From the sequence record NC_073318.1: a stretch of DNA of 44,240 bases. One strand, 5' to 3'. Shown here in pieces: positions 3,778-41,195 of the stretch (position 1 is its first letter; each line of letters begins with the position of its first letter). A program made the translations under genes and the position numbers. Source of the DNA: Escherichia phage NTEC3. Below the pieces are notes generated by a model that saw only the letters and a list, made by a program, of their open reading frames with translations, was not told the DNA's origin and ran no database searches.

Positions 3778-4096
3778 GTTTCCCCTTTCTCGATAAGTAA
3801 AGCCCCGCCATAAAGCGGGGCGCTAGTCCTTATCATTTAAACATAGAAACGGCGTAATCTCAGTAAACCAGTTACTTTTTACACAAGCAATAGGGTATGG
3901 CCCTTCCGAACGCGTCAGCGTAACTACACTCAGGACTTACGTCCCGCTCCGTTACCTGCCCGCGCCGCGGTCGCTTGTTCATACTTCACAAGCTCAGGTG
4001 GAGCTTATCATATTTTTAGTGAAAAGTCAACTATTCGAATAGTTTATTCCAACATTTACAATTCGGAGGAATAACTGGAATACGTAAATAAATAGT

Positions 4097-4125
4097 TTGC
4101 ACACCCCAATATAATAGGGTACTAT
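4097..4125 (+). promoter_or_regulatory. class A sigma70-like promoter, TTGCAC-N17-TACTAT, with AATAG-GGTA-CTATT palindrome
   Basis: -35 at 4097-4102, -10 at 4120-4125; 32-bp element identical to the copy at 38905. Confidence 0.55.
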
Positions 4126-4152
4126 TCAGTTAACTTAAACAGGAGGTGAAAA

Positions 4153-4356
4153 ATGTATGCAATTTGCGAAGTAGTTCAAGAGTTCGATGAAGAGTTCGAC
4201 GGTGACTTGTGCCGGGTTAAAAAGGTTCTGCAGGTTTTCCCTGACGCAATGTCTGCTTACAAGGCATTAGATATATTTGAACCTGGAAGATACGGGGATT
4301 ATGACACTGTTCTGAGGGTTGTCCATGAGCAGGATTTAAACACAAGATTCCGTTGA
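4153..4356 (+). CDS. moron-encoded small acidic protein, unknown function
   Basis: 67 aa; strong RBS AGGAGGT 7 nt before ATG; own promoter upstream and terminator downstream; opposite strand to flanking head genes. Confidence 0.6.
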   Translation: MYAICEVVQEFDEEFDGDLCRVKKVLQVFPDAMSAYKALDIFEPGRYGDYDTVLRVVHEQDLNTRFR

Positions 4357-9440: not shown

Positions 9441-9659
9441 TCATATATGTTCCAGTGATTCTCTCCAGTCTGTATCTTGGTTCTCTACACACCCGAGGCA
9501 TTGTACTTCTCCATCCTCGCTCGACCATACCCATTCAAGACCCTCGATAATGGGTTCGTACTCGAAGCCGTACACAGCCCCGTCTTCATCCGTGGCAACA
9601 TAGTTTATATTATCCCACACATGAAAATGTTTACCTTTATATTCTATAGTACGACTCAT
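9441..9659 (-). CDS. hypothetical protein
   Basis: 72 aa ORF in minus-strand early block; no recognisable motif. Confidence 0.4.
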   Translation of the reverse strand: MSRTIEYKGKHFHVWDNINYVATDEDGAVYGFEYEPIIEGLEWVWSSEDGEVQCLGCVENQDTDWRESLEHI

Positions 9660-9916
9660 TCCCCGCTCTCCTCTTTAGCAATGCGTTGCTCTGTTTTAGT
9701 GATACCCCGGCGCGTGAATAACACCGGGCTAGTCTTAACGTGCGTCATCAGACGATTGTTATAAATTACGTGGCGCTCACAATCAACGTCTTTACTGTAC
9801 TTAGCAATCGTCATTTCGTTGATACCGGTTTGTCGGCATGTCTCCGCCATCGTACCAAATTCTTTAATCAGGTTAGGAATGCTGGTAATCATCCTAAGAA
9901 ATTCCTCGTTGTCCAC
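9656..9916 (-). CDS. hypothetical protein (possible HTH)
   Basis: 86 aa; start overlaps downstream gene (ATGA-type coupling); TCRQTGINEMTIAKY resembles an HTH turn. Confidence 0.4.
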   Translation of the reverse strand: MDNEEFLRMITSIPNLIKEFGTMAETCRQTGINEMTIAKYSKDVDCERHVIYNNRLMTHVKTSPVLFTRRGITKTEQRIAKEESGE

Positions 9917-11359: not shown

Positions 11360-11440
11360 CTTCTCTACTCCGTTCTCGTTGTCGATGGAGTAAATATAAT
11401 AGGGTCGTAGGTAATAGTCAACTAGTCATTGCAGAAAATA

Positions 11441-15406: not shown

Positions 15407-15546
15407 TCACTCCGTTATAGACGCCGTTGTAATCTCCGTCGCAGATGAACGGGTAGAGCATATCTTCATACTCGTCCTGCAACTCGCCTAAAGTCACTTC
15501 GCTATAATCTTTCATCCTCTGTCTCTCCTCTCGTTTGTGTAAATGA

Positions 15547-15575
15547 ATAGTAGCCTATTCTATATTAGTGTGCAA
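15547..15575 (-). promoter_or_regulatory. class A promoter variant (internal early promoter)
   Basis: Reverse complement TTGCAC-N17-TACTAT, 26/32 match; upstream of a small minus-strand ORF starting near 15522. Confidence 0.4.
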
Positions 15576-16516: not shown

Positions 16517-16713
16517 TTCGCCCCTTTGAATTTAAAATTGTTGCCGATGAGCTTCATTTCATACTCTTGGTAATACGCCGCGGAACTTAACCCGTGCTCC
16601 CTTAGTAAGCTAACGACATAAGAACTTCGATACACTGTCGATTTCTTTTCAATAATACCTAAGCTACCGTATATAGTTTTTACTAACTGACCCTTCTTAA
16701 ACATAACCACCAC
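16513..16713 (-). CDS. first early gene, hypothetical
   Basis: 66 aa; probable ATG at 16704 after AGGAG; about 25 nt downstream of predicted class A promoter. Confidence 0.45.
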   Translation of the reverse strand: MVVMFKKGQLVKTIYGSLGIIEKKSTVYRSSYVVSLLREHGLSSAAYYQEYEMKLIGNNFKFKGAK

Positions 16714-16738
16714 TCCTCTGTCTCGTTCCGATAAGTGA

Positions 16739-16767
16739 ATAGTATCCTATTATATTGGGGTGTGCAA
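16739..16767 (-). promoter_or_regulatory. class A promoter for minus-strand early block
   Basis: Reverse complement reads TTGCAC-N17-TACTAT (31/32 match to consensus); first early ORF about 25 nt downstream. Confidence 0.5.
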
Positions 16768-17016
16768 GAGGATAGTTACGTTGCCGTTGTGATTCTTCGG
16801 GGATGGTTGTGCCATTATTCTTATTACTTGGTAACTAAAGGGCAGGCCTTAAGCCTGCCCAATAATCGTTACATTTTTACGGTTGCGAATCTACGGCACT
16901 TTAAGAAAATCAGATACTTAAGAGATATGCTGTCGATGAGAATAGAGCTTGCCCAGGGCAACCGGAGATACTTAGGAAGGAAAGTTACAACAATTCTCGT
17001 GTTCAGTAAGCCTGCT

Positions 17017-17048
17017 GCTTAACCCTTTGCTTAACGCACGGGTTAAGC
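17017..17048. repeat. 9-bp inverted repeat in divergent control region
   Basis: GCTTAACCC ... GGGTTAAGC separated by 14 nt that re-contain GCTTAAC. Confidence 0.45.
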
Positions 17049-17138
17049 ATTCTTACAAGGTGAACAGGAATCAAAGTAACTAAGATATAGAAGCACCTTA
17101 AACGAAGATTTTCTTAATGTCAATAGGTGTGATTATGT

Positions 17139-17167
17139 TTGATTTCCCATTATTCGCAATGTATACT
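17139..17167 (+). promoter_or_regulatory. candidate sigma70 promoter for replication module
   Basis: TTGATT-N17-TATACT about 30 nt upstream of the HTH gene start at 17200. Confidence 0.35.
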
Positions 17168-17199
17168 TGGTTTCGTTAACTGATAATGAGGGCTTTGGA

Positions 17200-17370
17200 A
17201 TGACACAGAATGAAGTAGCTGAGCGTATCGGGGTTACCCGTCGTACGCTGAATAACTGGTTAAAGAGTGGGAAGTTCCCGGATTGTTGTATTCGCATTAT
17301 GGGCCGCAGGCAGCCTGGTACGTTTGACCCGGAGAAAGTGGAAGCGTGGATTAAGGAGAACGTGAAATGA
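17200..17370 (+). CDS. HTH DNA-binding protein (AlpA/excisionase-like)
   Basis: ORF track starts at TTG 17167; likely ATG 17200 (MTQNEVAERIGVTRRTLNNW) after GAGGG; classic HTH. Confidence 0.55.
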   Translation: MTQNEVAERIGVTRRTLNNWLKSGKFPDCCIRIMGRRQPGTFDPEKVEAWIKENVK

Positions 17371-17600
17371 CAGAGTTTCAGTCACGCGTATTTACGGCAG
17401 TCGTTTCATTAACACGTAAAAAAGGGTCGTGCAGCGTTATCGACTTGCGCCGTAGTTATTTTAAGTACTATAGTTCCGCCATTATTGAAGGGTCGTTGAA
17501 GGTACTGGTTAAATCTGGTGTCGTGAAAAATGTTGGCGGGAAATATAGTGCTGTTGCCGAAGTTCGCGGAATGACCGCTACTTTAGAAGACCTGGAATAA
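17367..17600 (+). CDS. hypothetical protein with C-terminal LEDLE tail
   Basis: 77 aa; start overlaps previous stop (ATGA); C-terminus ATLEDLE resembles tails of two downstream replication proteins. Confidence 0.5.
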   Translation: MTEFQSRVFTAVVSLTRKKGSCSVIDLRRSYFKYYSSAIIEGSLKVLVKSGVVKNVGGKYSAVAEVRGMTATLEDLE

Positions 17601-17617
17601 AAGAAAGCCCCGACGCG

Positions 17618-19900
17618 GTGAACGCCGAGGCCAAATTACTTGCTGAAGGAATATACAACATGTCCGATGTAATTTTATCCTACTCGTGGTCCCGTCGCAA
17701 CGCGCGGGCAGAGAAAAAGGATATAAACGTCAGAACCACGCATGCGGCAACACTGGACGACCTGAAAGAGTTAATCCAGCCGCTCGATGCTGTTCGTGAC
17801 GGGATTAACCCTAAGACCGCGCCCGGCTATATCACAGCCGCGTGCGACTCTACGCACAGCACCGTAAAAGACCCGGAAACTGGGGACTTTAAGCAAGCAC
17901 GTAAAGGCTTCTTCTATCGCTGTGACGCGTCTGTAAGCAAATCGTCGCTCGCCTATCTGGACTTTGACAGTGCAACGCCGGAGGAGTATCAGGAAGCGGT
18001 GCGCCTGGTTAAGCGCAGCCGCCAGGCTATGTGCCTTTACACTACGGCATCCCATACTGATGAGGTCCCCCGCTTCCGCGTCGTCATGCCGCTAGGTCGC
18101 CCGGTCGAAGGTGGTGACATCATCCGCGTTCGTCATGGATTGCTGGAGCACTTCTTTAAAGGCATGGGCGCGGACCGCAGTGGTTTTACTCTGTCGCAGC
18201 CGATGTACCTGCCACCGGTCGGCTCTACCGTTATCTGGTCACGACGCAACGACCTGATTGACCCGGACGAGTTGCTGGAAGGTATCCCTGCCGTTGACGT
18301 TAGCAGCGCATCGGATTACCAGATACCTGAAGAACTGCGCACCGCGTTTACTGATGCGTTCGAGGCACTGGCGTTTGAGTACGGCGGCATCATGACGCCC
18401 CGCGGCCTTAAGATGCCAGCTACACCAGAACACGCAGAAAACTACAGCGACCCGACGCCTCGCCCGGACGACTTCCTGTTGTGTTTTCCGCGCGAGGGAT
18501 ATGAAGCGCCGAACGTAACCATGATTCACGACACCGACATTACGGCAACTGAAGGCATGTCTCCGAAAGAGGTGTGGAAGTATGCGTGCGACGCGACCGG
18601 GCTGCCGTTCAGTGAAGTGGCAGAGGCCATAGGTTGGGGTGCGCGTGAATCCGTTTCATGCAGCCTCGACGACCTGGAAGACGAGGATGACTCAGAGGAG
18701 TACGAGCTACCGGAACCTGTAAAGGCTGATTTCGTCGTAGAAGGGTATATGCCGTCGGATTGTATATGGGATATCGTCGGGGAGTCGGGCACATACAAAT
18801 CGTTCTATACTCTGGGGATGATGTACCTTAGCGCCGCCGGATACCGGTTCGCCGGGGCGGACACCCAGCGTTGCCATCACTTCTATATCGACGGTGAGGG
18901 GGGTGCTGCTACACGTACACGTATTGACGCACTCGCGGCTAAATACGGCGAGGAAGGTAAAGATTATGTACACGTCATCGATATGGGCGAAGTCGGCAAA
19001 CTGAAGAGCCTGATTAAGTTAATGCGCGAAACTGCCGGCGACGAGCCAATCGGCATGGTCGCGTTCGACACCCTAAACCAGACGCTGGCCCTGACGATTG
19101 ATAAGTTCGACGAGAACAGTTCATCAACGGCAATCGGCATGGGTAAAGTCATCGCCATCCTGAAAGAAGTGCGTGACGCGACTAAAGCCGCAGTAGGCGT
19201 TGTCCACCATACGCCGAAGGGTGGAAAGAAAGCACGCGGCAGTGGGGCGCTGTATGCGGGTGTTGACGTGGAACTGACAATCGAACGTGCAACCGACCGT
19301 CAAATAAACGTATACCACTCGAAATTTAAGCACGGTCCTCAACAGAAAACGGTTGGCATGGTGCTGGAGTCTGTGCAGTTCCGCGAAGCTCCGCCGCCGA
19401 AAGAGTACCGTGCGGTTGAGTTCCTGGGGGGCACAGAAGAATACGGCACAATCGTAAACCTGGACCTTCCTGAACCACACAAGGCGCTTGTGTTGATGCC
19501 GTGGGGTTTCGAGCCGTTCAAAACTGACGAGGAGAAAGAGCGGGAAGAAGGGTTGACGAAAGAAGGTAAGCAAAAAGTAAAGGAAGAAGTTAAACGCGGC
19601 AGGGATGAAGTAAGGAAGGAGTCAATACTTTCGGCACTGGAAGACCTGCAACAGTCAGATGACACAGGTCGCGGTTTTACTCAGCAGCAGATAGTGGCTC
19701 GTTCCGGTGACTTCTCTGTGACTAACACCCATCTTGATAAAATGTTGAAAGATGGAGAACTAATGCTTGGTTGCGATGCTAACGGCGAAGTAGTACCGAG
19801 AACATATCGTATACCCGAAAGAATAGGGGATAGATTAAGGCCGAAGACACTATACGAACCAAATGAGATGCTGGTGGTGACAGAGGAGGATTTGGAATAG
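17618..19900 (+). CDS. DNA primase / helicase (RepA/DnaB-like ATPase domain)
   Basis: 760 aa; Walker A-like GESGTYKS, Walker B MVAFDTLN, VVHHTPKGG block typical of RepA-like ATPases; C-terminal VTEEDLE. Confidence 0.7.
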   Translation: MNAEAKLLAEGIYNMSDVILSYSWSRRNARAEKKDINVRTTHAATLDDLKELIQPLDAVRDGINPKTAPGYITAACDSTHSTVKDPETGDFKQARKGFFYRCDASVSKSSLAYLDFDSATPEEYQEAVRLVKRSRQAMCLYTTASHTDEVPRFRVVMPLGRPVEGGDIIRVRHGLLEHFFKGMGADRSGFTLSQPMYLPPVGSTVIWSRRNDLIDPDELLEGIPAVDVSSASDYQIPEELRTAFTDAFEALAFEYGGIMTPRGLKMPATPEHAENYSDPTPRPDDFLLCFPREGYEAPNVTMIHDTDITATEGMSPKEVWKYACDATGLPFSEVAEAIGWGARESVSCSLDDLEDEDDSEEYELPEPVKADFVVEGYMPSDCIWDIVGESGTYKSFYTLGMMYLSAAGYRFAGADTQRCHHFYIDGEGGAATRTRIDALAAKYGEEGKDYVHVIDMGEVGKLKSLIKLMRETAGDEPIGMVAFDTLNQTLALTIDKFDENSSSTAIGMGKVIAILKEVRDATKAAVGVVHHTPKGGKKARGSGALYAGVDVELTIERATDRQINVYHSKFKHGPQQKTVGMVLESVQFREAPPPKEYRAVEFLGGTEEYGTIVNLDLPEPHKALVLMPWGFEPFKTDEEKEREEGLTKEGKQKVKEEVKRGRDEVRKESILSALEDLQQSDDTGRGFTQQQIVARSGDFSVTNTHLDKMLKDGELMLGCDANGEVVPRTYRIPERIGDRLRPKTLYEPNEMLVVTEEDLE

Positions 19901-19927
19901 GTAAAAAGAAAGGGGCTTTAAGCCCCT
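19900..19927 (-). terminator. terminator hairpin at 3' end of XRE gene
   Basis: AGGGGCT-TTA-AGCCCCT stem-loop; minus strand followed by TTCTTTTTAC. Confidence 0.45.
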
Positions 19928-20133
19928 TCACCTAACGCCAGCCACTTGGCGTCTACTTCCAGAACTTCCGCCAGTTTGAACAGCGTTGCCGGGCGGACGT
20001 CCTGAGTTACTCCAAGTGCCAGTTGGTTAATCGCGCCCTGGGAAACGCCGGTCAGGGCCGCCAAACGGCGCTGGGAGATGCCGAGTTCTTTGCGGCGTTG
20101 TTCTACACGGATGCCTAGTTCAGATGGTTGCAT
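19918..20133 (-). CDS. XRE-family (Cro/CI-type) HTH transcriptional regulator
   Basis: 71 aa; LGISQRRLAALTGVSQGAINQLALG is a canonical XRE HTH; RBS AAGGAG; divergent from plus-strand promoter. Confidence 0.75.
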   Translation of the reverse strand: MQPSELGIRVEQRRKELGISQRRLAALTGVSQGAINQLALGVTQDVRPATLFKLAEVLEVDAKWLALGEGA

Positions 20134-20154
20134 GTCAATTACTCCTTAGTCAGT

Positions 20155-20183
20155 TGATATGTGAATAGTACCATATTAATTAT
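20155..20183 (-). promoter_or_regulatory. candidate promoter for XRE repressor gene
   Basis: Minus-strand -10 TACTAT (plus coordinates 20155-20160) inside AATAGTACCATATT palindrome, 22 nt upstream of XRE start codon; -35 weak. Confidence 0.4.
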
Positions 20184-20197
20184 TTTAGAAAAGCCCA

Positions 20198-20226
20198 TTG
20201 ACATGTGAATAGTTCGCTATTATAGT
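20198..20226 (+). promoter_or_regulatory. class B sigma70 promoter, TTGACA-N17-TATAGT, operator in spacer
   Basis: -35 20198-20203, -10 20221-20226; spacer carries AATAGTTCGCTATT palindrome; drives gene at 20258. Confidence 0.6.
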
Positions 20227-20257
20227 TAGCCCATACCAAACGAGAGGAGAGAAACAA

Positions 20258-20758
20258 ATGTTAGAACAATTCTTAAAATTACTGGAACGTTTCGTAGTTG
20301 CACATGAACTGATTGCTGCGAACAGTGCGAAACAGTCAGCACAAGTTGCAGCGCCGTTAGAAGTAGAGACGGTAGTGTATACCAAAGAAGCGGTAGCTGA
20401 GTGCGAAAAAGAAGCAACAAAAGAAATCCCTGTTGAAGGTGAAGACATCGTTGACGCTAAACCAGCAGAAGAAGAGAAGCCGAAACGCAAGCCGCGTAAA
20501 GCTAAAGTAGAGGAGCCGACTCCAGAACCAGAAGAAGAGAAAGAAGAGGTCGATTACCAGTCTCTTCGTGACCAGATTCAGGCTATCGACGATGCGATTA
20601 ACGAAGGCCCAAGCGATGCCGCGTGCGACGATTCCGATGAACTGCTGGAGGAGTTCACCGGTAAGAAAATGAAGATTGCCGCGATTAAAGACGAAGACCT
20701 GGCTGAATACCTGAAACGCCTGACGGCAATCAAGAACAAGTATTTCGAAGAAGAATAA
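20258..20758 (+). CDS. acidic low-complexity protein, unknown function
   Basis: 166 aa, Glu/Lys-rich; RBS GAGAGGAGAG; 32 nt after class B promoter. Confidence 0.5.
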   Translation: MLEQFLKLLERFVVAHELIAANSAKQSAQVAAPLEVETVVYTKEAVAECEKEATKEIPVEGEDIVDAKPAEEEKPKRKPRKAKVEEPTPEPEEEKEEVDYQSLRDQIQAIDDAINEGPSDAACDDSDELLEEFTGKKMKIAAIKDEDLAEYLKRLTAIKNKYFEEE

Positions 20759-20801
20759 TTTATCTGGCGGCCTCCGGGCCGCTTTAACAGAGGGTCGTAA
20801 T

Positions 20802-21074
20802 ATGATTTACCAACTCTACCGAGGTATTGACCGACGGGATAACACAGAGGCGTTGTGGCTGTTGCGTGCGCCGTCCGGCGCGCACCAGATGGAAGAGATG
20901 GCCTACCTCGGCAAAGTACCGAAGCCGAAAGATATAGGCCGTCACCTGTCGCAGATTAAGCGCACGACATTCGTTAAAAGTGACTTTTATGTCTTCGAGT
21001 CGATGTATAGCTGGGCGATGCATTGTGACCACAAGACACGACATTTAATTGACCAGTGGGAGGTCAGGGTATGA
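20802..21074 (+). CDS. hypothetical protein
   Basis: 90 aa ORF with GAGGG RBS; overlaps next gene. Confidence 0.45.
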   Translation: MIYQLYRGIDRRDNTEALWLLRAPSGAHQMEEMAYLGKVPKPKDIGRHLSQIKRTTFVKSDFYVFESMYSWAMHCDHKTRHLIDQWEVRV

Positions 21075-22312
21075 TTTTAAAAGAACGCGGCGGCAATAAC
21101 GATGTGCACGCCCTGCTGTCGCCGTCAGGGGCTAAAAAGTGGCTAAGCTGCGCCGCATCGCTGGCCTGTGAGAAAGATATTCCCAACACGTCAGGTAAAG
21201 CCGCCGTTACAGGTACAGCGTGCCACACCATAGCGGAGGTCCATCTCAACGCCTATATCCGCGGAACTGCACTGCCGTTAGAGCGTGAAGTTGGCGCTTA
21301 CGTGCTGGACGAGGGTAAAGGCCAGATTAAGGCGCTAATCAGCCCGATGAAAGGTGCTGTACTGATTACGGCGGACATGATTGAGCAGGTGCGCAAGTAC
21401 ACCGACTACTGCAAAGCGATTATAGACGTAGCGACTTACGCCAAGCTGGAAATGCGTGTCAATCTTACTGAGGTATTGCATCCGGGGTATGAAGGCGTTG
21501 AGACGTTCGGAACCGCTGACCTCGTTGCTGTCCAGGAACTGGCAAACACCGACGAGCACATGCTCATTATCGGCGACATGAAAACCGGGCGGCATCGCGT
21601 CGAAGCGAAAGAAAACAAGCAGCTTATGCTTTACGCTCTCGGTGTTTATCGTCGACTCAAGAGACGTTATAACATAACAACCGTTCGTCTGGTCATCTTC
21701 CAGCCTTACGCTGGGGGCGCGACAGAGTGGGACATCTCGGTTGAAGGACTGGAACTGTTCGCTAAGTTCGCACAGAAACGCGCGCTGTTAGCGCTTGATG
21801 CGTATTTCCGTGGCAAGAAGAACCTGAAAGCGTCGGACTTCAAGCCATCGGTAGATGGTTGTCAGTGGTGCCGGTTCTCTGAACAATGCGCTGCGCGTAC
21901 AAAGACGGTTAATTCTGTACTGGCGGAAGAACTGGAAGACGACTTTGTGCTGGAACTGACGCCGGAGCAACTCGTAGCTGAGTATGAGAAGTTGCCGCTG
22001 TTGCGCCAGCACATCGACAAGGTTGAGAAAGCTATGGCGGCCGCGTTGCATTCAGGTAAGAAAGTTCCTGGTTACAAGTTGGTTGAAGGCCGCCCGGGTA
22101 ATCGTGCATGGAAAGACGCGGAGAAAGTAACAGAACTCTACGGCGACAAGCTGACTAAAGAAGTGCTCATGTCACCTACCGAAGCTGTTAAAGTCATACC
22201 GGAAGAAGAACTGAAAGACTTCATTACCCGTAAGCCAGGCGCACCATGTGTCGCAACGGCAGACGACAAACGTCCTGAGTGGAATCAGGTAACAGAGGAG
22301 GATTTGGAATGA
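21071..22312 (+). CDS. DUF2800-like PD-(D/E)xK (Cas4/RecB-like) nuclease
   Basis: ADLVAV ... IGDMKTG nuclease-like motifs and C-terminal Cys cluster CQWCRFSEQC; likely start ATG 21071 after GGGAGG; C-terminal VTEEDLE. Confidence 0.65.
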   Translation: MILKERGGNNDVHALLSPSGAKKWLSCAASLACEKDIPNTSGKAAVTGTACHTIAEVHLNAYIRGTALPLEREVGAYVLDEGKGQIKALISPMKGAVLITADMIEQVRKYTDYCKAIIDVATYAKLEMRVNLTEVLHPGYEGVETFGTADLVAVQELANTDEHMLIIGDMKTGRHRVEAKENKQLMLYALGVYRRLKRRYNITTVRLVIFQPYAGGATEWDISVEGLELFAKFAQKRALLALDAYFRGKKNLKASDFKPSVDGCQWCRFSEQCAARTKTVNSVLAEELEDDFVLELTPEQLVAEYEKLPLLRQHIDKVEKAMAAALHSGKKVPGYKLVEGRPGNRAWKDAEKVTELYGDKLTKEVLMSPTEAVKVIPEEELKDFITRKPGAPCVATADDKRPEWNQVTEEDLE

Positions 22313-22512
22313 TTCAAGTAAATGAAATGCCCACAGATAAAGATTTTGTGATGATATGGCGCTGGGGCGGTTATATCCATTCGGAATCGTTTACGTTCCT
22401 GAACGGCACGATGGTGCGATACAACCATGTGGAGGATGAATTCGAACCCGTTGATATGAATGATTTCGAGAACATAGTCCGTATTGCGAAATTTTATTTG
22501 ACACCTGAATAG
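22309..22512 (+). CDS. hypothetical protein
   Basis: Likely start ATG 22309 (MIQVNEM) after GAGGAGG; 67 aa. Confidence 0.45.
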   Translation: MIQVNEMPTDKDFVMIWRWGGYIHSESFTFLNGTMVRYNHVEDEFEPVDMNDFENIVRIAKFYLTPE

Positions 22513-22526
22513 TTAGCTATTATAGT
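22498..22526 (+). promoter_or_regulatory. class B promoter upstream of DUF2815-like gene
   Basis: TTGACA 22498-22503, 17 nt spacer with AATAGTTAGCTAT, TATAGT 22521-22526. Confidence 0.55.
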
Positions 22527-22585
22527 TCTAATCACTGACCGGGCAGCTTCCCGGAGTAAACGAAACTTAAAAGCGAGAAATTAAG

Positions 22586-23212
22586 ATGGGTATTAAACTG
22601 AATCTGCGTAAAGTAAACACTGCTTGGGTTAACGTATTTGAACGTGAAAAAGACCGTGAAAACGATGATGGCTCAATCACTAAAGGCCAGTACAGCGCGA
22701 CTATCATCCTGCCGTCTGACCATGCTCAAATCGATGCACTCTACGACACCGTTTACGCTGTAGTTGAAGAAGCGTTAGGCGCAGCCGCTGCCGAGAAATG
22801 GATGAAGTCCAACTACGGTGAAGGTAAGCACATGGATAAATGCGCGATTAAAGACATTGCCGAGCGCGACAATCCGTTTGAAGACTTCCCGGAAGGCTTC
22901 TACTTCAAAGCGAAGGCACAGAAACAGCCGCTGATTGTAACCTCTAAAAAAGGTGAGACTCAGGTAGAGCAGGACTTCAACGTAGACGGCGAACAGATTG
23001 AAGGTGAACAGGTTTACAGCGGATGCTTAGCTAACGTAAGCGTTGAAATCTGGTTCAGCCAGAAATACAAAGTCCTCGGCGTTAACCTGCTGGCGATTAA
23101 ATACGTTGGCGAAGGCAAAGCGTTCGGCGGTTCTAAAGTCGCTGCGAGCGTCAATGACCTGGAAGACGACGAAGAAGATGAAGCACCGCGCCGCGAACGT
23201 CGCCGCCGCTAA
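22586..23212 (+). CDS. DUF2815-like protein (ssDNA-binding candidate)
   Basis: 208 aa; sits between DUF2800-like nuclease and DNA polymerase as in the known DUF2800-DUF2815-PolA phage module; acidic/basic C-terminus. Confidence 0.55.
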   Translation: MGIKLNLRKVNTAWVNVFEREKDRENDDGSITKGQYSATIILPSDHAQIDALYDTVYAVVEEALGAAAAEKWMKSNYGEGKHMDKCAIKDIAERDNPFEDFPEGFYFKAKAQKQPLIVTSKKGETQVEQDFNVDGEQIEGEQVYSGCLANVSVEIWFSQKYKVLGVNLLAIKYVGEGKAFGGSKVAASVNDLEDDEEDEAPRRERRRR

Positions 23213-23231
23213 TATCTGAATCAATTTAACT

Positions 23232-23256
23232 AAGGCCCTTCATTGGGCCTTTTTAC
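23232..23256 (+). terminator. terminator / attenuator between DUF2815-like gene and DNA polymerase
   Basis: AAGGCCC-TTCATT-GGGCCTT hairpin followed by TTTTT, 16 nt before polymerase ATG. Confidence 0.45.
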
Positions 23257-23271
23257 TAGGGGTCAAAAATA

Positions 23272-25452
23272 ATGAGTTACCTGTTCTTAGACTTTGAAAC
23301 ATTCTCAGAAGCCGATTTGAAGAAAGTCGGTTCTTACGCTTACGCCGAACACCCGTCAACCGAAGTGCTTATCTGTACATATGCTTTTGACGACGAACCT
23401 GTGCGGGTATGGGATTGCACCGACGGCAGCGACATGCCGGGGGATTTACACCGCGCACTGCGCCGCCTTGTTAAGCCCAACAGCCGCATCAAGATGGTGT
23501 GGCACAACGGTGGACTTTTCGACCGCCTAATCATGAAACACTGCTGGGACTTTGATATTCCGGTAAGTAACACCATTGATACTATGATTTGGGCGTTCCG
23601 TCACGCGCTGCCGGGTTCTCTTGATGCGCTGTGCGAAGTGCTGGGCGTGTCTGCAGACAACGCGAAAGATAAACGCGGCAAGGCTCTGATTAAGCGTTTT
23701 TCTAAACCTACGCCGAAGAACTACAAAATCCGCCGCTACACCGCCGATACGCACCCGGACGAGTGGGCGCTGTTCATCAAGTACGCCGTTAGCGACATCA
23801 CTGCGATGCGTGAAGTCTTCCATAAGCTGCCGCGTTGGGGTAACTCCGAGTTCGAAGACCGTGTACTGGAACTGGACCAGTTGATTAACGACCGTGGGTT
23901 TAAGGTTGATGTGACGCTGGCGGAAGCCGCGATTGAAGCCGTGGAAAAACACAAGGCCAAGCTACAGGAAGAAGCACAGCGCAAATACGGCGGCTCGCTT
24001 ACTGGTAAAGACTTCCTGCCGATTCTGCGTGAACTGGCCCCCGCACACCGCATACACAACGCACAGAAGTCGACGCTGAATGACCTGCTGGCCGATGATG
24101 ATTTACCTGACGACGCCCGCACGATTATCGAAATGCGCCTCGGGGCCGCGTCAACAGCGTCCACGAAATATAACCCGCTGCTGTTAGGCCGCTCGTCGGA
24201 CGACCGACGCCGCGGTTGTATCCAGTACGGTGGGGCAAAGCGTACGTTACGGTTCGCGGGTAAAGGCTTCCAGCCACAGAACCTGGCGCGCGGGTACTAT
24301 CACGATGATGAACTGGATAAAGGTATTTCAGCGTTACTTAAGGGCCGCGCGCATCGCCGTTTCGATGTCGCTAAGCTAACGGCATCGACGGTGCGTAGCT
24401 GCATTATCCCGGAAGCCGGAAAAAAGTTTGTCGTCGCCGATTACTCTAACGTTGAAGGTCGGGGGCTTGCGTGGCTGGCAGGCGAAGAAACCGCGCTAGA
24501 TACGTTCCGCGCCGGGCTGGACATTTACTGTGTAACCGCGGGTAAGATGTTCGGCATGGAGCCGGATTACATTAAGAAGGAACGCAAAGACTTGCGCCAG
24601 ATTGGTAAAGCCTGCGAGCTTGGCCTCGGCTACGCTGGTGGTGTTGGCGCTTTCGTTCAGTTTGCTAAGAACCTCGGACTTGACCTTGTTGATATGTCAA
24701 AAACAATGGACGGTACTTTCCCGGACCACATCTGGGCGGCTACTGCACGCGGCTATGAATGGGCACGTATTCAGGAAGCCAAGCGACCGCCGCGACCCGG
24801 GGAGAAGGATGACCGACCATCGTATATTCTTGATAAGAAAGTGTGGCGTACCTGTGACGCTATCAAGCGTATGTGGCGAGAGTCACACCCTGAAACAGTA
24901 GCTTTCTGGCGAGATATTGAAGACGCAGCTATGGCCGCTATCCGCAATCCAGGTAAAGAGTTCACCGCGGGGCCTAGGGGGGTTAAGTTTTCGCGCAACG
25001 TAGAGACAGACAACAACGGCAACAAAGTCGCCGGCTGGTGGTTGCGCATGACGTTGCCGTCGGGTCGCGTTATGTCTTATCCGGGCGTCGGGTTAAGCGT
25101 GTCGAAAGAAACAGACGAAGATGGAAAAGTGTCTACTAACGTACGCATCAAGTACCAGGGGGAGAACCAGTTAACCCGTCAGTGGGGCTTCCAGTACACC
25201 TACTCTGGTAAACTCGTGGAAAACTGTACTCAGGCGCTGTGCCGTGATTTGCTGGCCAATGCACTGCTGAACGTTGAAGCAAACGGCTATCCTATTGTGC
25301 TTCACGTACACGACGAAATTATCTGCGAAACACCAGATACGCCAGAATACAATGTTGCAGAGCTTGAGCGGTTGATGTGCGAATTACCGGAGTGGGCGGA
25401 GGGGTTCCCTCTTGTAGCGGAAGGTGCGGAGATGAAGCGATATGCCAAGTAA
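23272..25452 (+). CDS. family A DNA polymerase with 3'-5' exonuclease domain
   Basis: 726 aa; N-terminal DFETFS exonuclease motif; C-terminal VHDEIICE polymerase motif C. Confidence 0.85.
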   Translation: MSYLFLDFETFSEADLKKVGSYAYAEHPSTEVLICTYAFDDEPVRVWDCTDGSDMPGDLHRALRRLVKPNSRIKMVWHNGGLFDRLIMKHCWDFDIPVSNTIDTMIWAFRHALPGSLDALCEVLGVSADNAKDKRGKALIKRFSKPTPKNYKIRRYTADTHPDEWALFIKYAVSDITAMREVFHKLPRWGNSEFEDRVLELDQLINDRGFKVDVTLAEAAIEAVEKHKAKLQEEAQRKYGGSLTGKDFLPILRELAPAHRIHNAQKSTLNDLLADDDLPDDARTIIEMRLGAASTASTKYNPLLLGRSSDDRRRGCIQYGGAKRTLRFAGKGFQPQNLARGYYHDDELDKGISALLKGRAHRRFDVAKLTASTVRSCIIPEAGKKFVVADYSNVEGRGLAWLAGEETALDTFRAGLDIYCVTAGKMFGMEPDYIKKERKDLRQIGKACELGLGYAGGVGAFVQFAKNLGLDLVDMSKTMDGTFPDHIWAATARGYEWARIQEAKRPPRPGEKDDRPSYILDKKVWRTCDAIKRMWRESHPETVAFWRDIEDAAMAAIRNPGKEFTAGPRGVKFSRNVETDNNGNKVAGWWLRMTLPSGRVMSYPGVGLSVSKETDEDGKVSTNVRIKYQGENQLTRQWGFQYTYSGKLVENCTQALCRDLLANALLNVEANGYPIVLHVHDEIICETPDTPEYNVAELERLMCELPEWAEGFPLVAEGAEMKRYAK

Positions 25453-25809: not shown

Positions 25810-26089
25810 TAAAGAGGGACGCATCCAGAAATACGCAAAAGAGCGATTCGAGGCCATTGGTGGCCTCGTTCGTAAGCTGTCTTATGAGGGGCGCTCCGGC
25901 GCCCCCGACCTGCTGGTAATTCTCCCCGGCGGCATCGTCTGGTTCGTCGAGGTTAAGAAAGACGAAAACACGAAGCCAGACCCGCACCAGATACGAGAGC
26001 ACGAGCGGATGCGTAAACGCGGTGCAAATGTTTTTGTCGTCGGTTCGTTTAAACAGGTTGACGACCTAATAGCGAACTATTATAGTTAG
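25805..26089 (+). CDS. VRR-NUC domain nuclease
   Basis: 94 aa; GAPDLLVI ... VEVKK fits the PD-(D/E)xK VRR-NUC signature. Confidence 0.65.
   Translation: MTKEGRIQKYAKERFEAIGGLVRKLSYEGRSGAPDLLVILPGGIVWFVEVKKDENTKPDPHQIREHERMRKRGANVFVVGSFKQVDDLIANYYS
26058..26086 (+). promoter_or_regulatory. class B promoter upstream of 63 aa / methyltransferase / SNF2 genes
   Basis: TTGACG 26058-26063, spacer with AATAGCGAACTAT, TATAGT 26081-26086; overlaps 3' end of VRR-NUC gene. Confidence 0.55.
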
Positions 26090-26119: not shown

Positions 26120-26311
26120 ATGAAACACGAATATGACCGAAAACCTGCACGTGACATCGTACCAGGCGACATGATTTTCAACGTTAAGACCCGTCGTCCT
26201 GTTGCCGTTGATACAGTGTTCGTCGAGTCGAACGGTAAACTGGTTATCGAAGATGTAACCGGCAATATTACGGCGTTCGGGCGTAAAGAGTTAGTTCTGG
26301 TGGCAAAATGA
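26120..26311 (+). CDS. hypothetical small protein, coupled to methyltransferase
   Basis: 63 aa; RBS AAGGAA; stop overlaps methyltransferase start (ATGA). Confidence 0.45.
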   Translation: MKHEYDRKPARDIVPGDMIFNVKTRRPVAVDTVFVESNGKLVIEDVTGNITAFGRKELVLVAK

Positions 26312-27102
26312 ACTATTACAACGAATGGGATAAAGGCGCAGCCGCGTGGCTGCGTGAATTAATAAAACAGGGTCACATACCTTTTGGAGTTGTAGATGAA
26401 AGAAGCATTACCGAAGTTAGACCAGAAGACCTTGACGGGTTCACCCAGTGTCATTTTTTCGCGGGTATTGGCGGCTGGCCTCTCGCGCTCAGACTTGCGG
26501 GAGTTTCTGAAGATACGCCTATATGGACGGGAAGTCCGCCTTGCCAACCGTTTAGCACGGCAGGAAAGCAACTCGGACAGTTCGACCAGAGACACCTCGC
26601 ACCTGTGCTCCTCGACCTCATCAGCGAGTGCCACCCTCCAGTCATCTTTGGGGAGCAGGTTGCGGCAGCAATTGCAAAATCGTGGATGTGCGATTTACAA
26701 ACTCACCTGGAAAGAGAAGACTACGCCGTCGGGTTTGCCGTACTCCCAGCTTGTAGCGTCGGCGCACCGCACAAAAGGAATCGATTGTTCTTCGGAGCGC
26801 AGCAACTGGCCAACACCGTGTGCGAACAACTCGGCGGGAGCAGGCCATCAGGGCAGGAACGGGGGCCACAATCTGCAAACAGAGGCATCTCTGACACAGC
26901 CAATCCGCCTAACGGGTTCTGGTCAGATGCTGACTGGCTCGGATGCCGGGATGGAAAATTCAGGCCAGTTGAACCCAGCACATTCCCGCTGGCTAATGGG
27001 GTACCCGCCAGAGTGGGACGATTGCGCGGTTACGGCAATGCTATCGTCCCGCAAGTAGCCGCTGAATTTATAAAGGCGTTCATGGGGGCCGTAAATGAGT
27101 AA
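26308..27102 (+). CDS. DNA (cytosine-5)-methyltransferase, compact form
   Basis: Motif I FAGIGG, motif IV PCQPFS (catalytic Cys), ENV-like GEQV, motif VIII-like HKRNRLFF, motif X GNAIVP; only 264 aa. Confidence 0.7.
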
Positions 27103-28684: not shown

Positions 28685-30862
28685 ATCGCAAAGTAAGGAT
28701 TTGGTGAAGTTTGGCACCCACGGCATCCTGTCAGAAATTACTAAATCTCTGATTAATATGCCGCAGTCTGCAGATGCGCCGCTATAGGTAACTTGGATAT
28801 TAAAACTAGTTGCCTGGCTTCTGGCAAGACTGATGGCTGCAAAATAATCGTTACCGGTCTGTGGTGATATAGTCACATATGAGGTTCCTAGTCCTATTTT
28901 TACGACAGTATTTGTCCCATAACTGGTAAATTGATGACGGAAAAGAACATAAACGCGGTCGTGATTGTTGAAAACCGCGTTTGTAGTTGTGATTGGTATT
29001 GTGAATGTTTTTGTGGTAGCGTCTCGTGCAAAGGTAACCTGTAGATTATCACCAGAAGTAGCCATAGTTACGCCTGATTCCTGCGGGTAAGCAGAACCGT
29101 TATTGGCGTTAAGCGCAGACCTTTTAAAAAGAACAAATGGTTTTGAAGACATTTGTTCACTCTCCCAGGTACTTGTCCCACTATCGTCCCAAAAAAGACC
29201 CTTAAAATAATACATTACACTGGATGACACGGTCCAACCGGCTAAATCAAACATGCTCCCGGTTGCATCTGTTAAGTCACAGTTAATAAATCTATTAAAT
29301 CTGTTGGTGGAGTTCTGGTATACGCAACAAGGTGTCGTTGTTCCTGTTGTGATATTAGGGTCCGCAAATGATACTGAGTTGAATGTTACGTATTCGCACC
29401 CATCCATGATAATGCCGCCGCGAGTCACAGCGCCGGAGCGTTGGATATTAGTAAATGTACTGTTACGCATATTCGCAAGAAGGGCAAAAGTACAGTCCGC
29501 TGTTAATGACCCATCGGCATTGTGGGCTTCTCCGTGGAAATCTGTAAAATGAATATCGCGGAAGCCCTTGACATCAGATGCACTATTTCCGGCTAGGCTT
29601 TCTGAATAGATGGCGTATGTTGCGCGACTCGCCCATCCTACACGGTCGAATGTACATGCAAAAATCTGTCGGTCTACATGGCAGGAGAACCTGATACTAG
29701 GGTTGCCAGATGTCGCCCATGAAGGGTTGTTGTCGATTGTGCTGAAAAACATACAATCCCGGAATGACAGGCCTGTTAAATTTCCACGGTCGATATCTGT
29801 ATTAGTCCTGAGCACAAGCCCACCGCCTAATGTCCATACGTGGCTTAATTCCAGGTTCTCCACGTCTCCAGATGTTGCGTTTTTAGGGTGGATAACAACA
29901 GCAGCATCGAAGGTTCCAGATACAGATATCCGACGGACGACGGAATTACGGCAGCCGCCAATGTGCAGCCCAACCACATTCGGCTGGGAACCATCTGCGT
30001 TTATCTGGAAACCTTCAATATAAAACGGGTCTTGTCCTGTGTTATCAATAGCGACTATAGCGGGTCCTGTGGAACCGGCAATTACGTTAGTGCCAGTAAA
30101 GTCAGGGAGAGCCATAAAGTATGTTTCTGGGTAGACCCCAACAATACGCGTCCTTTTTGGAAGGTTAAGAGTAGAATCAAGCCAAAAGAACCCAGCCGGG
30201 AAACGTAAAGTAACCCCAGTACCGATATTCTCGCTAGTTGCTGCCGCTAAAGCCTGCTCAATGTATGTCCTTACGCTTCCTAGTGCTTTTGACGCGTTAA
30301 CATCGTTTAGAGCTGCGATCACGTTAGCTGGAAGGTAGTCAAGTATGTTTATCTCTGTTTTTGCTGCTTGAGTCTTGCGGTAGTCAAACTCTGCCTGTAC
30401 GGTCCTGCCGGATGTTGTCCCAACTAACCCTGCGCCAGTGCTTAGGGCCAAATCACGGCGCAATGCAGCTTCACTAACGGCAACCCATGCGGTCTGGCCT
30501 ACTCCGCCCGTAGACGCCGGGGTTGAAGATGCCGGGATGGTTTTTGGCAGAGCACCCTTCCATGCATAATAGTTGCCGTCGCCTGATGGCCCTGGCCACA
30601 ACACCGCCAGGTCAGCGTCGTTAACGCCCAAAGTCCCACCTGTTTCGAATGTGAAAGACGCAGGTCTGAACCCGGCGTCGCGCAACACGGCGGGGAGTGT
30701 CTTCTGCGTCTGCCCTGTAACCTGATTTGTTGCGTAATCAATATCAGCACCAGTAGCAACACCACCGGATTTACCAGTAATAACCTCAGCTTCAAAAATC
30801 TGGTGCTTCTTGGCGGTCTGTAAATCCGCCAGGCTTAAAACGTCACCGCATACGCTTGACAT
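28682..30862 (-). CDS. tailspike / tail fibre protein (receptor binding, beta-helix candidate)
   Basis: 726 aa, last gene of tail module, Gly/Asn/Thr/Ser-rich repetitive C-terminal part; fold not verified. Confidence 0.55.
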   Translation of the reverse strand: MSSVCGDVLSLADLQTAKKHQIFEAEVITGKSGGVATGADIDYATNQVTGQTQKTLPAVLRDAGFRPASFTFETGGTLGVNDADLAVLWPGPSGDGNYYAWKGALPKTIPASSTPASTGGVGQTAWVAVSEAALRRDLALSTGAGLVGTTSGRTVQAEFDYRKTQAAKTEINILDYLPANVIAALNDVNASKALGSVRTYIEQALAAATSENIGTGVTLRFPAGFFWLDSTLNLPKRTRIVGVYPETYFMALPDFTGTNVIAGSTGPAIVAIDNTGQDPFYIEGFQINADGSQPNVVGLHIGGCRNSVVRRISVSGTFDAAVVIHPKNATSGDVENLELSHVWTLGGGLVLRTNTDIDRGNLTGLSFRDCMFFSTIDNNPSWATSGNPSIRFSCHVDRQIFACTFDRVGWASRATYAIYSESLAGNSASDVKGFRDIHFTDFHGEAHNADGSLTADCTFALLANMRNSTFTNIQRSGAVTRGGIIMDGCEYVTFNSVSFADPNITTGTTTPCCVYQNSTNRFNRFINCDLTDATGSMFDLAGWTVSSSVMYYFKGLFWDDSGTSTWESEQMSSKPFVLFKRSALNANNGSAYPQESGVTMATSGDNLQVTFARDATTKTFTIPITTTNAVFNNHDRVYVLFRHQFTSYGTNTVVKIGLGTSYVTISPQTGNDYFAAISLARSQATSFNIQVTYSGASADCGILIRDLVISDRMPWVPNFTKSLLCD

Positions 30863-38904: not shown

Positions 38905-38933
38905 TTGCACACCCCAATATAATAGGGTACTAT
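38905..38933 (+). promoter_or_regulatory. class A promoter driving the tail-module accessory operon
   Basis: -35 TTGCAC 38905-38910, 17 nt spacer, -10 TACTAT 38928-38933; identical 32-mer to 4097-4128. Confidence 0.55.
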
Positions 38934-38961
38934 TCACCAGTAACTTACTGAGGGTATAATT

Positions 38962-39288
38962 ATGCGTAAATTAGTATTAGCTCTGGGGTTTATGTCTTTT
39001 GCTACTTTTGGAGCCCCGTGCGAACAGGTATTTAGTGAATCCGTTCTTATGACTTCTGGTGTGCTTGATAAAGCCGACCTTACTATTGTAAAGGCATTTA
39101 AAGACTCTACAGTTCGCGAGTGTGAGGCTGCCGTAGTGGTTGGTAAATCGGGCCTGCCTCCGCAAGCCGTAACATACTCGGTAATACGTTCTGTAGAGAA
39201 AAACGGAGACGCGTTTTACAGCCTACTGACAGCCACCCGCCTGCAAATGGTGATGACCGGGTGGGCGATAGGCGCGGAAAGTAAATAG
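38962..39288 (+). CDS. secreted small protein (signal peptide), accessory operon gene 1
   Basis: 108 aa; N-terminal MRKLVLALGFMSFATFGA signal peptide; GAGGG RBS; class A promoter 30 nt upstream. Confidence 0.55.
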   Translation: MRKLVLALGFMSFATFGAPCEQVFSESVLMTSGVLDKADLTIVKAFKDSTVRECEAAVVVGKSGLPPQAVTYSVIRSVEKNGDAFYSLLTATRLQMVMTGWAIGAESK

Positions 39289-39353
39289 TCGCCTTTATTT
39301 AAAGGAATGCACTGTGGTTAAATAGGACAAATCCTAAACACGAGGAAGTAAGC

Positions 39354-40484
39354 ATGGCCCGGAAGAAAATAACCGACGAACAGTTGCAGGAAGAATTGAA
39401 CGCCGGGATGAAGAATATCGATATCGCCCGTAAATACGGAATCTCAGACCGCGTTATTCGTATCCGTAAAGCGAAGCTGGCTAAGAAAGGTGTAGGCCAC
39501 GGGCGTGACGTTAGCCACCTTGTCCCAGACGGCTACAAGATTAAAGGGACGTCGTCCCTGGTGGACGAGTTCGGCAACACTAAGTTGCAATGGGTTAAGA
39601 CCGACGCTGATGCCGAACGTCAGGTTGAATTGATGAAAGCCGTAATAGAGGGCATGAAGTCAGAGATTACGCCCGTTGCGCCTGTTAAACCGGCACGAGC
39701 CAAACGTGACGATAAACTACTCAATCTTTACACGGTATCTGATTTCCATCTCGGTATGCTGGCATGGGCCGATGAGAGCGGCGACGACTGGGACATGAAG
39801 ATTGCAGAAGACCTGTTCTCTCGGTGGTTCGACGCGGCGTTTCAGAAAGCACCGGATGCAGGAACAGGAGTTATTAACCTGCTTGGCGACCTTGCACACT
39901 TCGATAGTCTGGACGCCGTTACCCCGGCAAGTGGTCATGTTCTCGATGCGGACACGCGCTACCAGAAACTGGTTCGCTACATGATTCGTATGGTCCGCCG
40001 TGTTGTCGATATGGCCCTTGTTAAGCATAAAAATGTTCGCTTGCTTATCGTACAAGGGAACCACGACGAAAGCGGAATGATTTGGTTAGCTGAGATGTTC
40101 AGTACGCTGTACGACAATGAGCCTCGTGTGTTCGTCGATACGTCGCCGGATGTTTACAAGATGGTGCAACACGGCAAAACGACGCTGTTCTTTACACACG
40201 GGCATAAATGCCGGTTTGAGGTGGTCGAACCCATTATGATAGCTAAGTTCAGAAAAGCATTTGGCGAAAGCGAGTACAGTTACGCACATGTCGGTCATCT
40301 CCACCATCAAAAGATTGTAGAAAGTAGGAATATGGTAGTGGAACAACATCGCACTCTCGCGGCGAAAGATGCATATGCTTCCCGCGGTGGGTGGATGTCT
40401 AAGAGGTCCGCTAATGTCATAACCTATAGTTCAGAGTTCGGGGAAGTAGGTAGGCTTTCGATCTCACCGGAGATGCTAAGATGA
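39354..40484 (+). CDS. HTH domain fused to calcineurin-like / SbcD-Mre11-like metallophosphoesterase
   Basis: N-terminal HTH (NIDIARKYGISDRVIRIRK); phosphoesterase motifs SDFHLG, GDLAHFD, QGNHDE, THGH, VGHLHH in canonical order. Confidence 0.65.
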   Translation: MARKKITDEQLQEELNAGMKNIDIARKYGISDRVIRIRKAKLAKKGVGHGRDVSHLVPDGYKIKGTSSLVDEFGNTKLQWVKTDADAERQVELMKAVIEGMKSEITPVAPVKPARAKRDDKLLNLYTVSDFHLGMLAWADESGDDWDMKIAEDLFSRWFDAAFQKAPDAGTGVINLLGDLAHFDSLDAVTPASGHVLDADTRYQKLVRYMIRMVRRVVDMALVKHKNVRLLIVQGNHDESGMIWLAEMFSTLYDNEPRVFVDTSPDVYKMVQHGKTTLFFTHGHKCRFEVVEPIMIAKFRKAFGESEYSYAHVGHLHHQKIVESRNMVVEQHRTLAAKDAYASRGGWMSKRSANVITYSSEFGEVGRLSISPEMLR

Positions 40485-40951: not shown

Positions 40952-40964
40952 GGGAGATTGATTT

Positions 40965-41195
40965 ATGACTTCAAAATACAACCGCACAATGACAAATACT
41001 CACGGCAGCACTATGACAGTAGACGTTTATGATGTGCTCCGCGCCTTCGATATACGCGACCCGGCGCTACAGCACGCATTGAAGAAGCTATTGTGCATGG
41101 GCTTGCGCGGACACAAGGACACCGGAACCGACTTAGCGGAAGCAATTGAAAGTCTGGAGAAGTTACGGGAATACCGAAGCAATATTGATGAGTAA
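40965..41195 (+). CDS. hypothetical protein, last gene of accessory operon
   Basis: 76 aa ORF, 14 nt after HNH gene, followed by terminator. Confidence 0.45.
   Translation: MTSKYNRTMTNTHGSTMTVDVYDVLRAFDIRDPALQHALKKLLCMGLRGHKDTGTDLAEAIESLEKLREYRSNIDE

Follow-up and report, generated by a model that had tools for sequence, protein, structure and literature searches.

Why should a phage of a strictly lytic group keep a gene for a repressor of the Cro/CI type, set against the direction of its own replication genes? The question is raised by Escherichia phage NTEC3 (NC_073318.1), whose 44,240 nucleotides, here called the window, form a complete genome of the genus Kagunavirus (Guernseyvirinae). 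The gene, at 19918..20133 on the minus strand, encodes a protein of 71 amino acids (aa), referred to below as XRE after its family. A first-pass annotation, made from the DNA letters alone, had noticed this helix-turn-helix (HTH) gene facing the plus-strand replication block and had offered two explanations, a role in the timing of transcription and a relic of temperate ancestry. The evidence favours timing. XRE is probably a single-domain repressor of the 434 Cro type, negatively autoregulated, that acts on early and replication promoters of a strictly virulent phage and serves temporal control rather than a lysogeny switch. The earlier observation is largely real; one of its coordinate pairs is wrong, and its scope is too narrow.

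The XRE protein and the operator-like dyads upstream of its gene

Membership in the XRE/Cro-C1 HTH proteins follows from Pfam, where HTH_3 (PF01381) matches residues 11-65 of the protein with an E value of 3.9e-13 and 49.7 bits, above the curated cut-off of 23. Its closest solved relative is 434 Cro, likewise 71 aa long (E 8.5e-6; residues 6-68 aligned with 4-64), and the N-terminal DNA-binding domain of the 434 repressor matches with E 1.1e-5. An AlphaFold (AF2) model is all-helical and has the XRE fold (pLDDT 81); this single-sequence model matches only the generic fold, as represented by HipB, C proteins, 434 Cro, SinR and P22 C2. No Pfam domain was found besides HTH_3, and neither a cleavable nor a peptidase nor an oligomerisation domain is present. 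With about 70 residues made up of the five-helix domain alone, the protein has the build of a 434-Cro-type single-domain repressor.

The intergenic region between the XRE gene and the gene at 20258 measures 124 bp (20134-20257), as had been reported. It contains the strong plus-strand promoter that had also been recognised, P(+), with the hexamers TTGACA-17-TATAGT at 20198..20226 (11 of 12 consensus matches), which drives transcription from 20258 onward, with a start predicted near 20233, and belongs to a family described below as class A. P(+) is kept in all 37 Kagunavirus relatives compared. The first-pass annotation placed two operator palindromes in this region. The one at 20207-20220 is a real dyad displaced by a single nucleotide: the perfect operator O2, AATAGTTCGCTATT, occupies 20208..20221, lies in the P(+) spacer and reaches the first base of the -10. 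The other, at 20154-20167 (TTGATATGTGAATA), lacks palindromic symmetry and forms the left part of a 25-nt direct repeat whose copies, at 20154-20178 and 20198-20222, lie 44 bp apart and contain one 14-bp dyad each. The real dyad of the left copy, O1 (AATAGTACCATATT), is found 10 nt away at 20164..20177 and is imperfect, its right arm reading ATATT instead of CTATT. This imperfection is kept in the Kagunavirus relatives examined.

The O1 defect appears to have a function of its own. A minus-strand promoter with its -10 inside a palindrome had been suspected, and the hexamer TACTAT indeed lies at 20170..20165, inside O1. Read on the minus strand, O1 is AATATGGTACTATTCAC, and its right part, GGTACTATTCAC, is identical to the -10 block of a second promoter family (class B, below), without the TTGCAC -35 of that family. 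The substitution that spoils the dyad (AATAT, not AATAG) places TG one base upstream of TACTAT, which creates the extended -10 motif TGn. In the Kagunavirus loci this TG is invariant and the next base is variable (G, with A in locus L009 and C in L038). Because O1 reproduces the class B block and the TG is fixed while the following base is free, an extended -10 promoter, TGgTACTAT at 20173..20165 (-), with no usable -35, is proposed for the XRE gene, with transcription starting near 20158.

A further near-palindrome, ATTGACATGTGAAT, which covers the -35 of P(+), was considered as an operator and rejected, as its ACATGT core is not conserved among relatives.

The same 14-bp dyad, AATAG-N4-CTATT, recurs throughout the genome. 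Seven perfect copies occur, at 4113, 15546, 16738, 20208, 22508, 26068 and 38921, against 0.04 expected. Allowing one mismatch raises the count to 11 sites (the seven perfect ones and four others), where 0.97 are expected and no more than 4 were seen in any of 100 shuffles. In a census of all 5-N(0-8)-5 and 6-N-6 palindromes in the window this dyad ranks first, the other recurrent palindromes being GC-rich, terminator-like hairpins. Only 6.0% of the genome is non-coding, yet nine of the 11 sites are entirely confined to this part, and the remaining two fall in the last codons of open reading frames (ORFs) directly upstream of the next gene. All seven perfect copies, and O1, are located inside one of two promoter families or the promoter of the XRE gene itself, and the dyad marks at least eight promoters genome-wide.

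In class A promoters (TTGACA-N4-AATAGNNNNCTATTATAGT) the dyad sits in the 17-bp spacer. They are found on the plus strand at 20198, 22498 and 26058, before replication genes that include a DUF2800 nuclease, SSB, DNA polymerase, a methylase and an SNF2 helicase. The second, TTGACA-17-TATAGT at 22498..22526 (+), with its perfect dyad at 22508-22521, precedes the SSB and DNA polymerase genes; the third, TTGACG-17-TATAGT at 26058..26086 (+), with the dyad at 26068-26081, precedes 26120 and the methylase and SNF2 helicase genes. In class B promoters (TTGCAC-ACCCCAATAT-AATAGGGTACTATT) the -10, TACTAT, lies within the dyad, and the genes behind them form blocks of mostly small genes of unknown function. 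Two are on the plus strand, at 4097..4125 before 4153-4356 (dyad 4113-4126) and at 38905..38933 before 38962-41195 (dyad 38921-38934). The two on the minus strand, both TTGCAC-17-TACTAT, drive a leftward small-gene block from 16704 (16739..16767; dyad 16738-16751) and leftward genes from 15515 (15547..15575; dyad 15546-15559). The arms of the dyad are constant among class A, class B and the promoters of the related genus Jerseyvirus, while the bases at its centre differ, as does its position with respect to the -10. Such differing registers indicate a separate binding module and not a part of the sigma-70 consensus.

One class-A-like promoter, TTGACT-17-TATATT at 11421..11393 (-), has lost the left arm (ACCTA, not AATAG). 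Behind it come small genes and then the terminase and head genes, and the same arrangement is found in Jerseyvirus (locus L043, ~30466-30503 (+)). This promoter is a candidate for escape from repression.

Conservation in three genera and the proposed lytic role

The gene is widespread among relatives of the phage. A tblastn search with the XRE protein matched 535 phage records, with identities of 93-100% in Kagunavirus, about 48% in Jerseyvirus and 41% in Cornellvirus, and a megablast search with 17000-24000 matched 445 phage records, nearly all of them Kagunavirus or Jerseyvirus. In Jerseyvirus the layout is the same, the XRE gene being convergent with the helicase gene, and in the Cornellvirus phage Shemara it is co-directional with a very divergent helicase.

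The intergenic region hardly differs among 37 Kagunavirus loci taken from IMG/VR. None of the 37 departs from perfect O2 arms; what varies is the central four nucleotides (TTCG, TTCA, TTAG, CTAG, TTTG or CTCG) and the stretch from the -35 to the arm, where a 1-nt indel also occurs. In Jerseyvirus, AATAG-N4-CTATT occurs as four perfect and three one-mismatch sites against 1.33 expected, and upstream of the XRE gene one good (O2) and one poor (O1) site lie 55 bp apart, with TACTAT in O1 and TTGCGT 17 bp upstream of it. A search of Shemara for AATAG-N4-CTATT found none; its place is taken by ATTAG-N4-GTAWT, which occurs in the same register at orthologous promoters (nine sites against 2.2 expected). 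Two of these sites precede the XRE gene, and one of them overlaps a TATACT -10. Two dyads upstream of the XRE gene, with a -10-like hexamer inside each O1-type site, are therefore common to all three genera. This conservation of gene, position and operators argues for a current function.

The spacings between O1 and O2 (44, 55 and 64 bp) are within about a quarter turn of whole helical turns. This was given little weight, since it is hard to see how a Cro-type protein of 71 aa could loop DNA. Upstream of a distant XRE relative (38% identity; IMG/VR 3300045596_000160, ~3860-4000) another palindrome, approximately ACAGATATCTGT, is repeated in three to four copies, which shows operators changing along with the protein within this XRE lineage.

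These features suggest how XRE would act in infection. A dimer of the protein would bind the 14-bp dyad AATAG-N4-CTATT, and on O2, in the spacer of P(+) (20198-20226), it would block RNA polymerase. Dimers on the perfect dyads in the class A promoters at 22498 and 26058, and in the -10 of the class B promoters at 4097, 15575, 16767 and 38905, would do the same. The extended -10 of the XRE gene sits in the weaker dyad O1, so the other promoters would be shut first and the synthesis of XRE itself limited only at higher concentration, as proposed for negative autoregulation. After a burst of transcription by host sigma-70 polymerase, early and replication promoters would be turned down across the genome, and promoters without a full dyad, such as the one at 11421..11393 before the packaging and head genes, would stay open. 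This would equal the lytic job of Cro without its lysogeny partner.

No description of this particular regulon was found in the full-text literature searched. Published descriptions name the gene in passing as 'DicA/Cro/repressor' or state that a repressor is absent (PMC9787291, PMC13216507). Regulation of this kind is already known from Cro in lytic growth, from the cro-like genes of virulent Streptococcus thermophilus phages and, in function, from p4 of Bacillus phage phi29. The likeness to 434 Cro extends from the protein, a single all-helical HTH domain whose best match among solved structures it is, to the 14-bp dyad operators that overlap promoters, as they do for the Cro proteins of 434, lambda and P22 in their lytic role. 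The proposed task, turning down early promoters in lytic growth together with its own, is also theirs. In contrast to those phages, there is here no CI partner, no tripartite OR/OL and no lysogeny. The operators are distributed over at least eight promoters around the genome, not gathered in two operator clusters as in 434; their sequence is unrelated (AATAG-N4-CTATT here, ACAA-N6-TTGT in 434), and the XRE gene lies antisense inside the replication gene block, convergent with the helicase-primase gene.

The virulent S. thermophilus phages resemble NTEC3 as integrase-less lytic siphoviruses with Cro-type HTH genes, which are thought either to control early functions and replication or to be remnants of lysogeny modules (PMC5338259). 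They belong to another lineage and host; here a genome-wide operator set can be read from the DNA, and no temperate relatives are known. In the virulent phage phi29, the small phage-encoded protein p4 attaches to DNA at or beside early sigma-A promoters, represses them and so times the early-to-late switch. Small size, DNA binding and the proposed repression of early promoters are shared with XRE. The differences are that p4 falls outside the XRE/HTH_3 family, acts as an activator too, at the late promoter A3, and has the histone-like p6 as a partner; for XRE there is no sign of activation. A fourth parallel is provided by the controller (C) proteins of restriction-modification systems, in which a strong and a weak dyad give concentration-dependent autoregulation and delayed expression of other genes. 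XRE shares with them the fold, the length (70-80 aa) and a strong and a weak dyad in its own promoter, whereas a C-box and adjacent restriction-modification genes are missing and its candidate regulon consists of phage promoters.

The resulting regulatory map links a single candidate repressor, through a 14-bp operator, to promoters of classes A and B and to an autoregulated promoter of its own, and it explains why a repressor-like gene need not mean lysogeny. It also yields ready-made engineering parts, namely strong sigma-70 promoters with a built-in operator, in small phages that the BASEL authors consider attractive models for synthetic biology (PMC11990801). Few 'safe, strictly lytic' phages for E. 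coli and Salmonella are isolated as commonly as the Guernseyvirinae (Kagunavirus, Jerseyvirus). If XRE acts as proposed, deletion or over-expression of its gene should alter the timing of infection.

Several observations weigh against this account of XRE. Two candidate promoters compete for its gene: besides the extended -10, a consensus scan gives TTCACA-16-TAAAAT at 20182..20209 (-), with 10 of 12 matches. With this alternative, whose start is predicted near 20175, O1 would fall just downstream of the transcription start, and the action of O1 would be negative with either promoter. The promoter of the helicase-primase operon (17139) has no dyad, and a rule that all early and middle promoters are controlled does not hold strictly. 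In Cornellvirus the symmetry of the site is weak. RNA sequencing of a Kagunavirus (PMC12645636) identified four early genes, among them an HTH gene (_008), which could not be matched to the XRE gene. The weightiest objections concern the identity of the DNA-binding protein.

The protein that binds the dyad

The window encodes three small HTH proteins: XRE, a NinH-like protein (9656-9892) and an HTH_17 protein of 56 aa (17200-17370 (+)). The last is encoded by the first gene of the helicase-primase operon, and its best PHROG hit is phrog_66, 'excisionase and transcriptional regulator'. XRE is the likely binder. 434 Cro and the 434 repressor bind 14-bp dyads, and dyads of this length are enriched about 175-fold in the window and are present in the upstream region of the XRE gene itself, a pattern from which binding by a 434-type dimer is predicted. 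The 434-Cro-type fold, the two sites upstream of the gene, the link between the O1 defect and the XRE promoter and the occurrence of the protein in three genera all point the same way.

An unlikely alternative is that the dyad is bound by the HTH_17 protein, of MerR/excisionase type, or by the NinH-like protein. XRE would then have a local or different target, and the dyads adjoining its gene would be no more than a class A promoter and its degenerate duplicate, a view with which the 25-nt repeat agrees, as it reveals O1 to be a duplicated copy of the P(+) core. This alternative draws on the same facts that weigh against XRE. Between Kagunavirus and Jerseyvirus, XRE shows only 48% identity, and four of six recognition-helix positions are changed (SQGAINQ and SQSLITH, respectively), yet the operator arms in the two genera are the same, as would be expected if another protein were the binder. 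Covariation of recognition helix and operator arms across genera was considered as a way to assign the dyad and gave no clean result that would settle the binder. The HTH_17 protein, by contrast, is 87.5% identical between these two genera and, like the AATAG dyad, missing from Shemara; XRE and the NinH-like protein occur in each of the three genera. The classical targets of MerR-type proteins are dyads in promoter spacers, and this is where the class A dyads sit.

The Cornellvirus evidence can also be read the other way. Although HTH_17 is missing there, an altered site persists in the same register at orthologous promoters, with two copies before the XRE gene. The loss of HTH_17 accompanies a very divergent helicase-primase (28% identity), which suggests that HTH_17 is part of that replication module. 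Moreover, the 56-aa HTH_17 protein has no MerR dimerisation helix, and a 14-bp dyad suits dimers of 434-type XRE proteins. The O1 defect, which doubles as the TGn of the XRE promoter, ties the dyad functionally to the XRE gene. XRE accordingly stays the favoured binder.

Lysogeny, carrier state and other readings

If XRE controls the dyad promoters, its regulon might serve a dormant state instead of the lytic programme. The likeness to an autoregulated genetic switch that had been drawn from the intergenic region holds for the anatomy: dyads cover the divergent promoter and the -10 of the XRE gene, and the operators are graded, with perfect O2 over P(+) and imperfect O1 over the XRE -10. It fails for a local two-operator switch, given the many promoters involved, and for the lambdoid pair of antagonistic divergent repressors. 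The divergent gene at 20258-20758 has neither an HTH nor a Pfam hit and is replaced in relatives, so a CI/Cro pair is not present. Nor does XRE, an HTH domain only, contain a RecA-cleavable or antirepressor-sensitive domain of an inducible maintenance repressor, and the Pfam scans returned no antirepressor family.

Functions for integration, excision or prophage maintenance were likewise not found in Pfam scans and prophage searches. The first-pass annotation had seen no integrase, excisionase or partition gene and had asked for integrase and parAB to be sought in the rest of the genome. When 29 ORFs were scanned one by one against Pfam, and 49 small ORFs in concatenated form, no integrase, serine recombinase, ParA/B, protelomerase or antirepressor was detected; the remaining large ORFs, outside these scans, are annotated in ON548432.1 as head, packaging, tail, lysis or replication proteins or as HNH endonuclease. 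'Serglycin' hits in the concatenated ORFs were dismissed as artefacts of the GS linkers. The claim about excisionase needs qualification, as the phrog_66 match of the HTH_17 protein is the sole PHROG match to 'integration and excision', and it is not accompanied by an integrase. The window is collinear over its full length with ON548432.1 (Escherichia phage vB_EcoS_SCS92, a complete record), with 1,461 substitutions and no indels, and the absence of integrase, partition genes and prophage copies is therefore valid genome-wide. The differences between the two are very patchy, from 0 per kb in many stretches to a maximum of 141 per kb, mostly with third-codon spacing, and the pattern looks like that of a mosaic relative or a reference-guided consensus.

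No Kagunavirus-like DNA was found in 5,426 complete E. coli genomes, and 185,579 species-representative genomes gave matches of at most 50% identity, one of them full-length (48%). This one was rejected as a prophage: it is a Jerseyvirus contaminant in a Bacteroidota assembly (L046, NZ_JACVEL010000022.1, Taishania pollutisoli scaffold22). The scaffold, 18,987 bp long, is 91-93% identical to Jerseyvirus over about 12 kb and is almost certainly phage contamination.

A switch for dormancy, a carrier state or superinfection immunity, in which high levels of XRE would reversibly silence the genome (non-integrative pseudolysogeny) or incoming relatives, has only a slim chance of being correct. Seven early and replication promoters lie under the dyad, and the repressor is apparently autoregulated. 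A full-length Kagunavirus genome has also been filed as a circular 44,086-bp plasmid, pC16EC0033-2 (CP088689.1), of a clinical E. coli blood isolate, which could reflect a carrier state or contamination. However, no second record of this sort exists among 72,556 plasmids, and the one that does is accounted for equally well by contamination or an ongoing infection. The phage has no partition, replication-control or anti-repressor/induction module, and no dyad covers the helicase-primase promoter. The Guernseyvirinae are described as strictly lytic, and clear plaques are reported for Jerseyvirus GF04 (PMC9787291; PMC13216507). The boldest form of this idea, a complete integration-free 'off switch' that gives a reversible silent episomal state in slow-growing cells and immunity to related phages, is more doubtful still. 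If it were true, CP088689.1 would be a trace of that state, and this would matter for the use of Kagunavirus and Jerseyvirus, actual or proposed, as 'strictly lytic' therapeutic and food-safety agents.

About as improbable as this last form is the view, raised at the outset, that the gene is a temperate relic, left over from an ancestor's immunity functions and now of hardly any use, or none, in the lytic cycle. The lack of integrase, excision and partition machinery would agree with it, and CI and Cro proteins of temperate phages (32-45% identity) are among the closest homologues beyond the subfamily. There is also a precedent in the cro-like genes of virulent S. thermophilus phages, which have been read as suggesting a prophage origin (PMC5338259). 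A relic is nevertheless not demonstrable, and the conservation across three genera argues for current function. The gene is intact in the 535 matching phage records and has kept its position in genera whose proteins are 48% and 41% identical to that of the window; the DNA upstream of it hardly changes in the 37 Kagunavirus loci while the neighbouring gene is replaced; the dyad regulon is kept genome-wide; and neither the E. coli nor the species-representative genomes contain a temperate relative or prophage.

Finally, an antitoxin of a toxin-antitoxin pair or a restriction-modification C protein is almost certainly the wrong reading. The matches to HipB, HigA, C.BclI and C.AhdI in fold and sequence searches are explained by the fold that XRE proteins have in common. 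The gene is monocistronic, ends in a terminator of its own and lacks a partner ORF on the same strand; where a type II system would have a co-transcribed toxin, a convergent gene follows. The C-5 cytosine methylase that the phage does encode (26308-27102) is about 6 kb away, no restriction endonuclease family was found in the Pfam scans, and the operator differs from a C-box.

Neighbouring features

Translation of XRE would start from a Shine-Dalgarno sequence, AGGAG, at 20143..20147 (-), 8 nt before the ATG. Its transcript ends at an intrinsic terminator at 19909..19929 (-), a 9-pair stem with five GC pairs and the tail CTTTTTACCT, which overlaps the XRE stop codon. The T-run is found on the minus strand only, and plus-strand read-through into XRE, with transcriptional interference, is therefore possible: transcription from the promoter at 17139 may cross the XRE gene in antisense after passing the convergent helicase-primase gene (17618-19900).

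The first gene behind P(+), at 20258..20758 (+), encodes an acidic 166-aa protein without a Pfam hit that belongs to phrog_3127 (unknown function). This slot is hypervariable, with at least five unrelated genes or N-termini among the Kagunavirus relatives (L002-L038), while the promoter and operator region next to it stays constant. A paper on phage genome reduction (PMC9825161) was set aside as not relevant, its phages being Skatevirus and Ackermannviridae. Upstream of the HTH_17 gene, the stretch 16705-17199 is long and poorly coding. Its ORF at 16807-17022 is without a PHROG match and includes a strong hairpin (16840-16860), and the region may be regulatory or origin-like rather than protein-coding.

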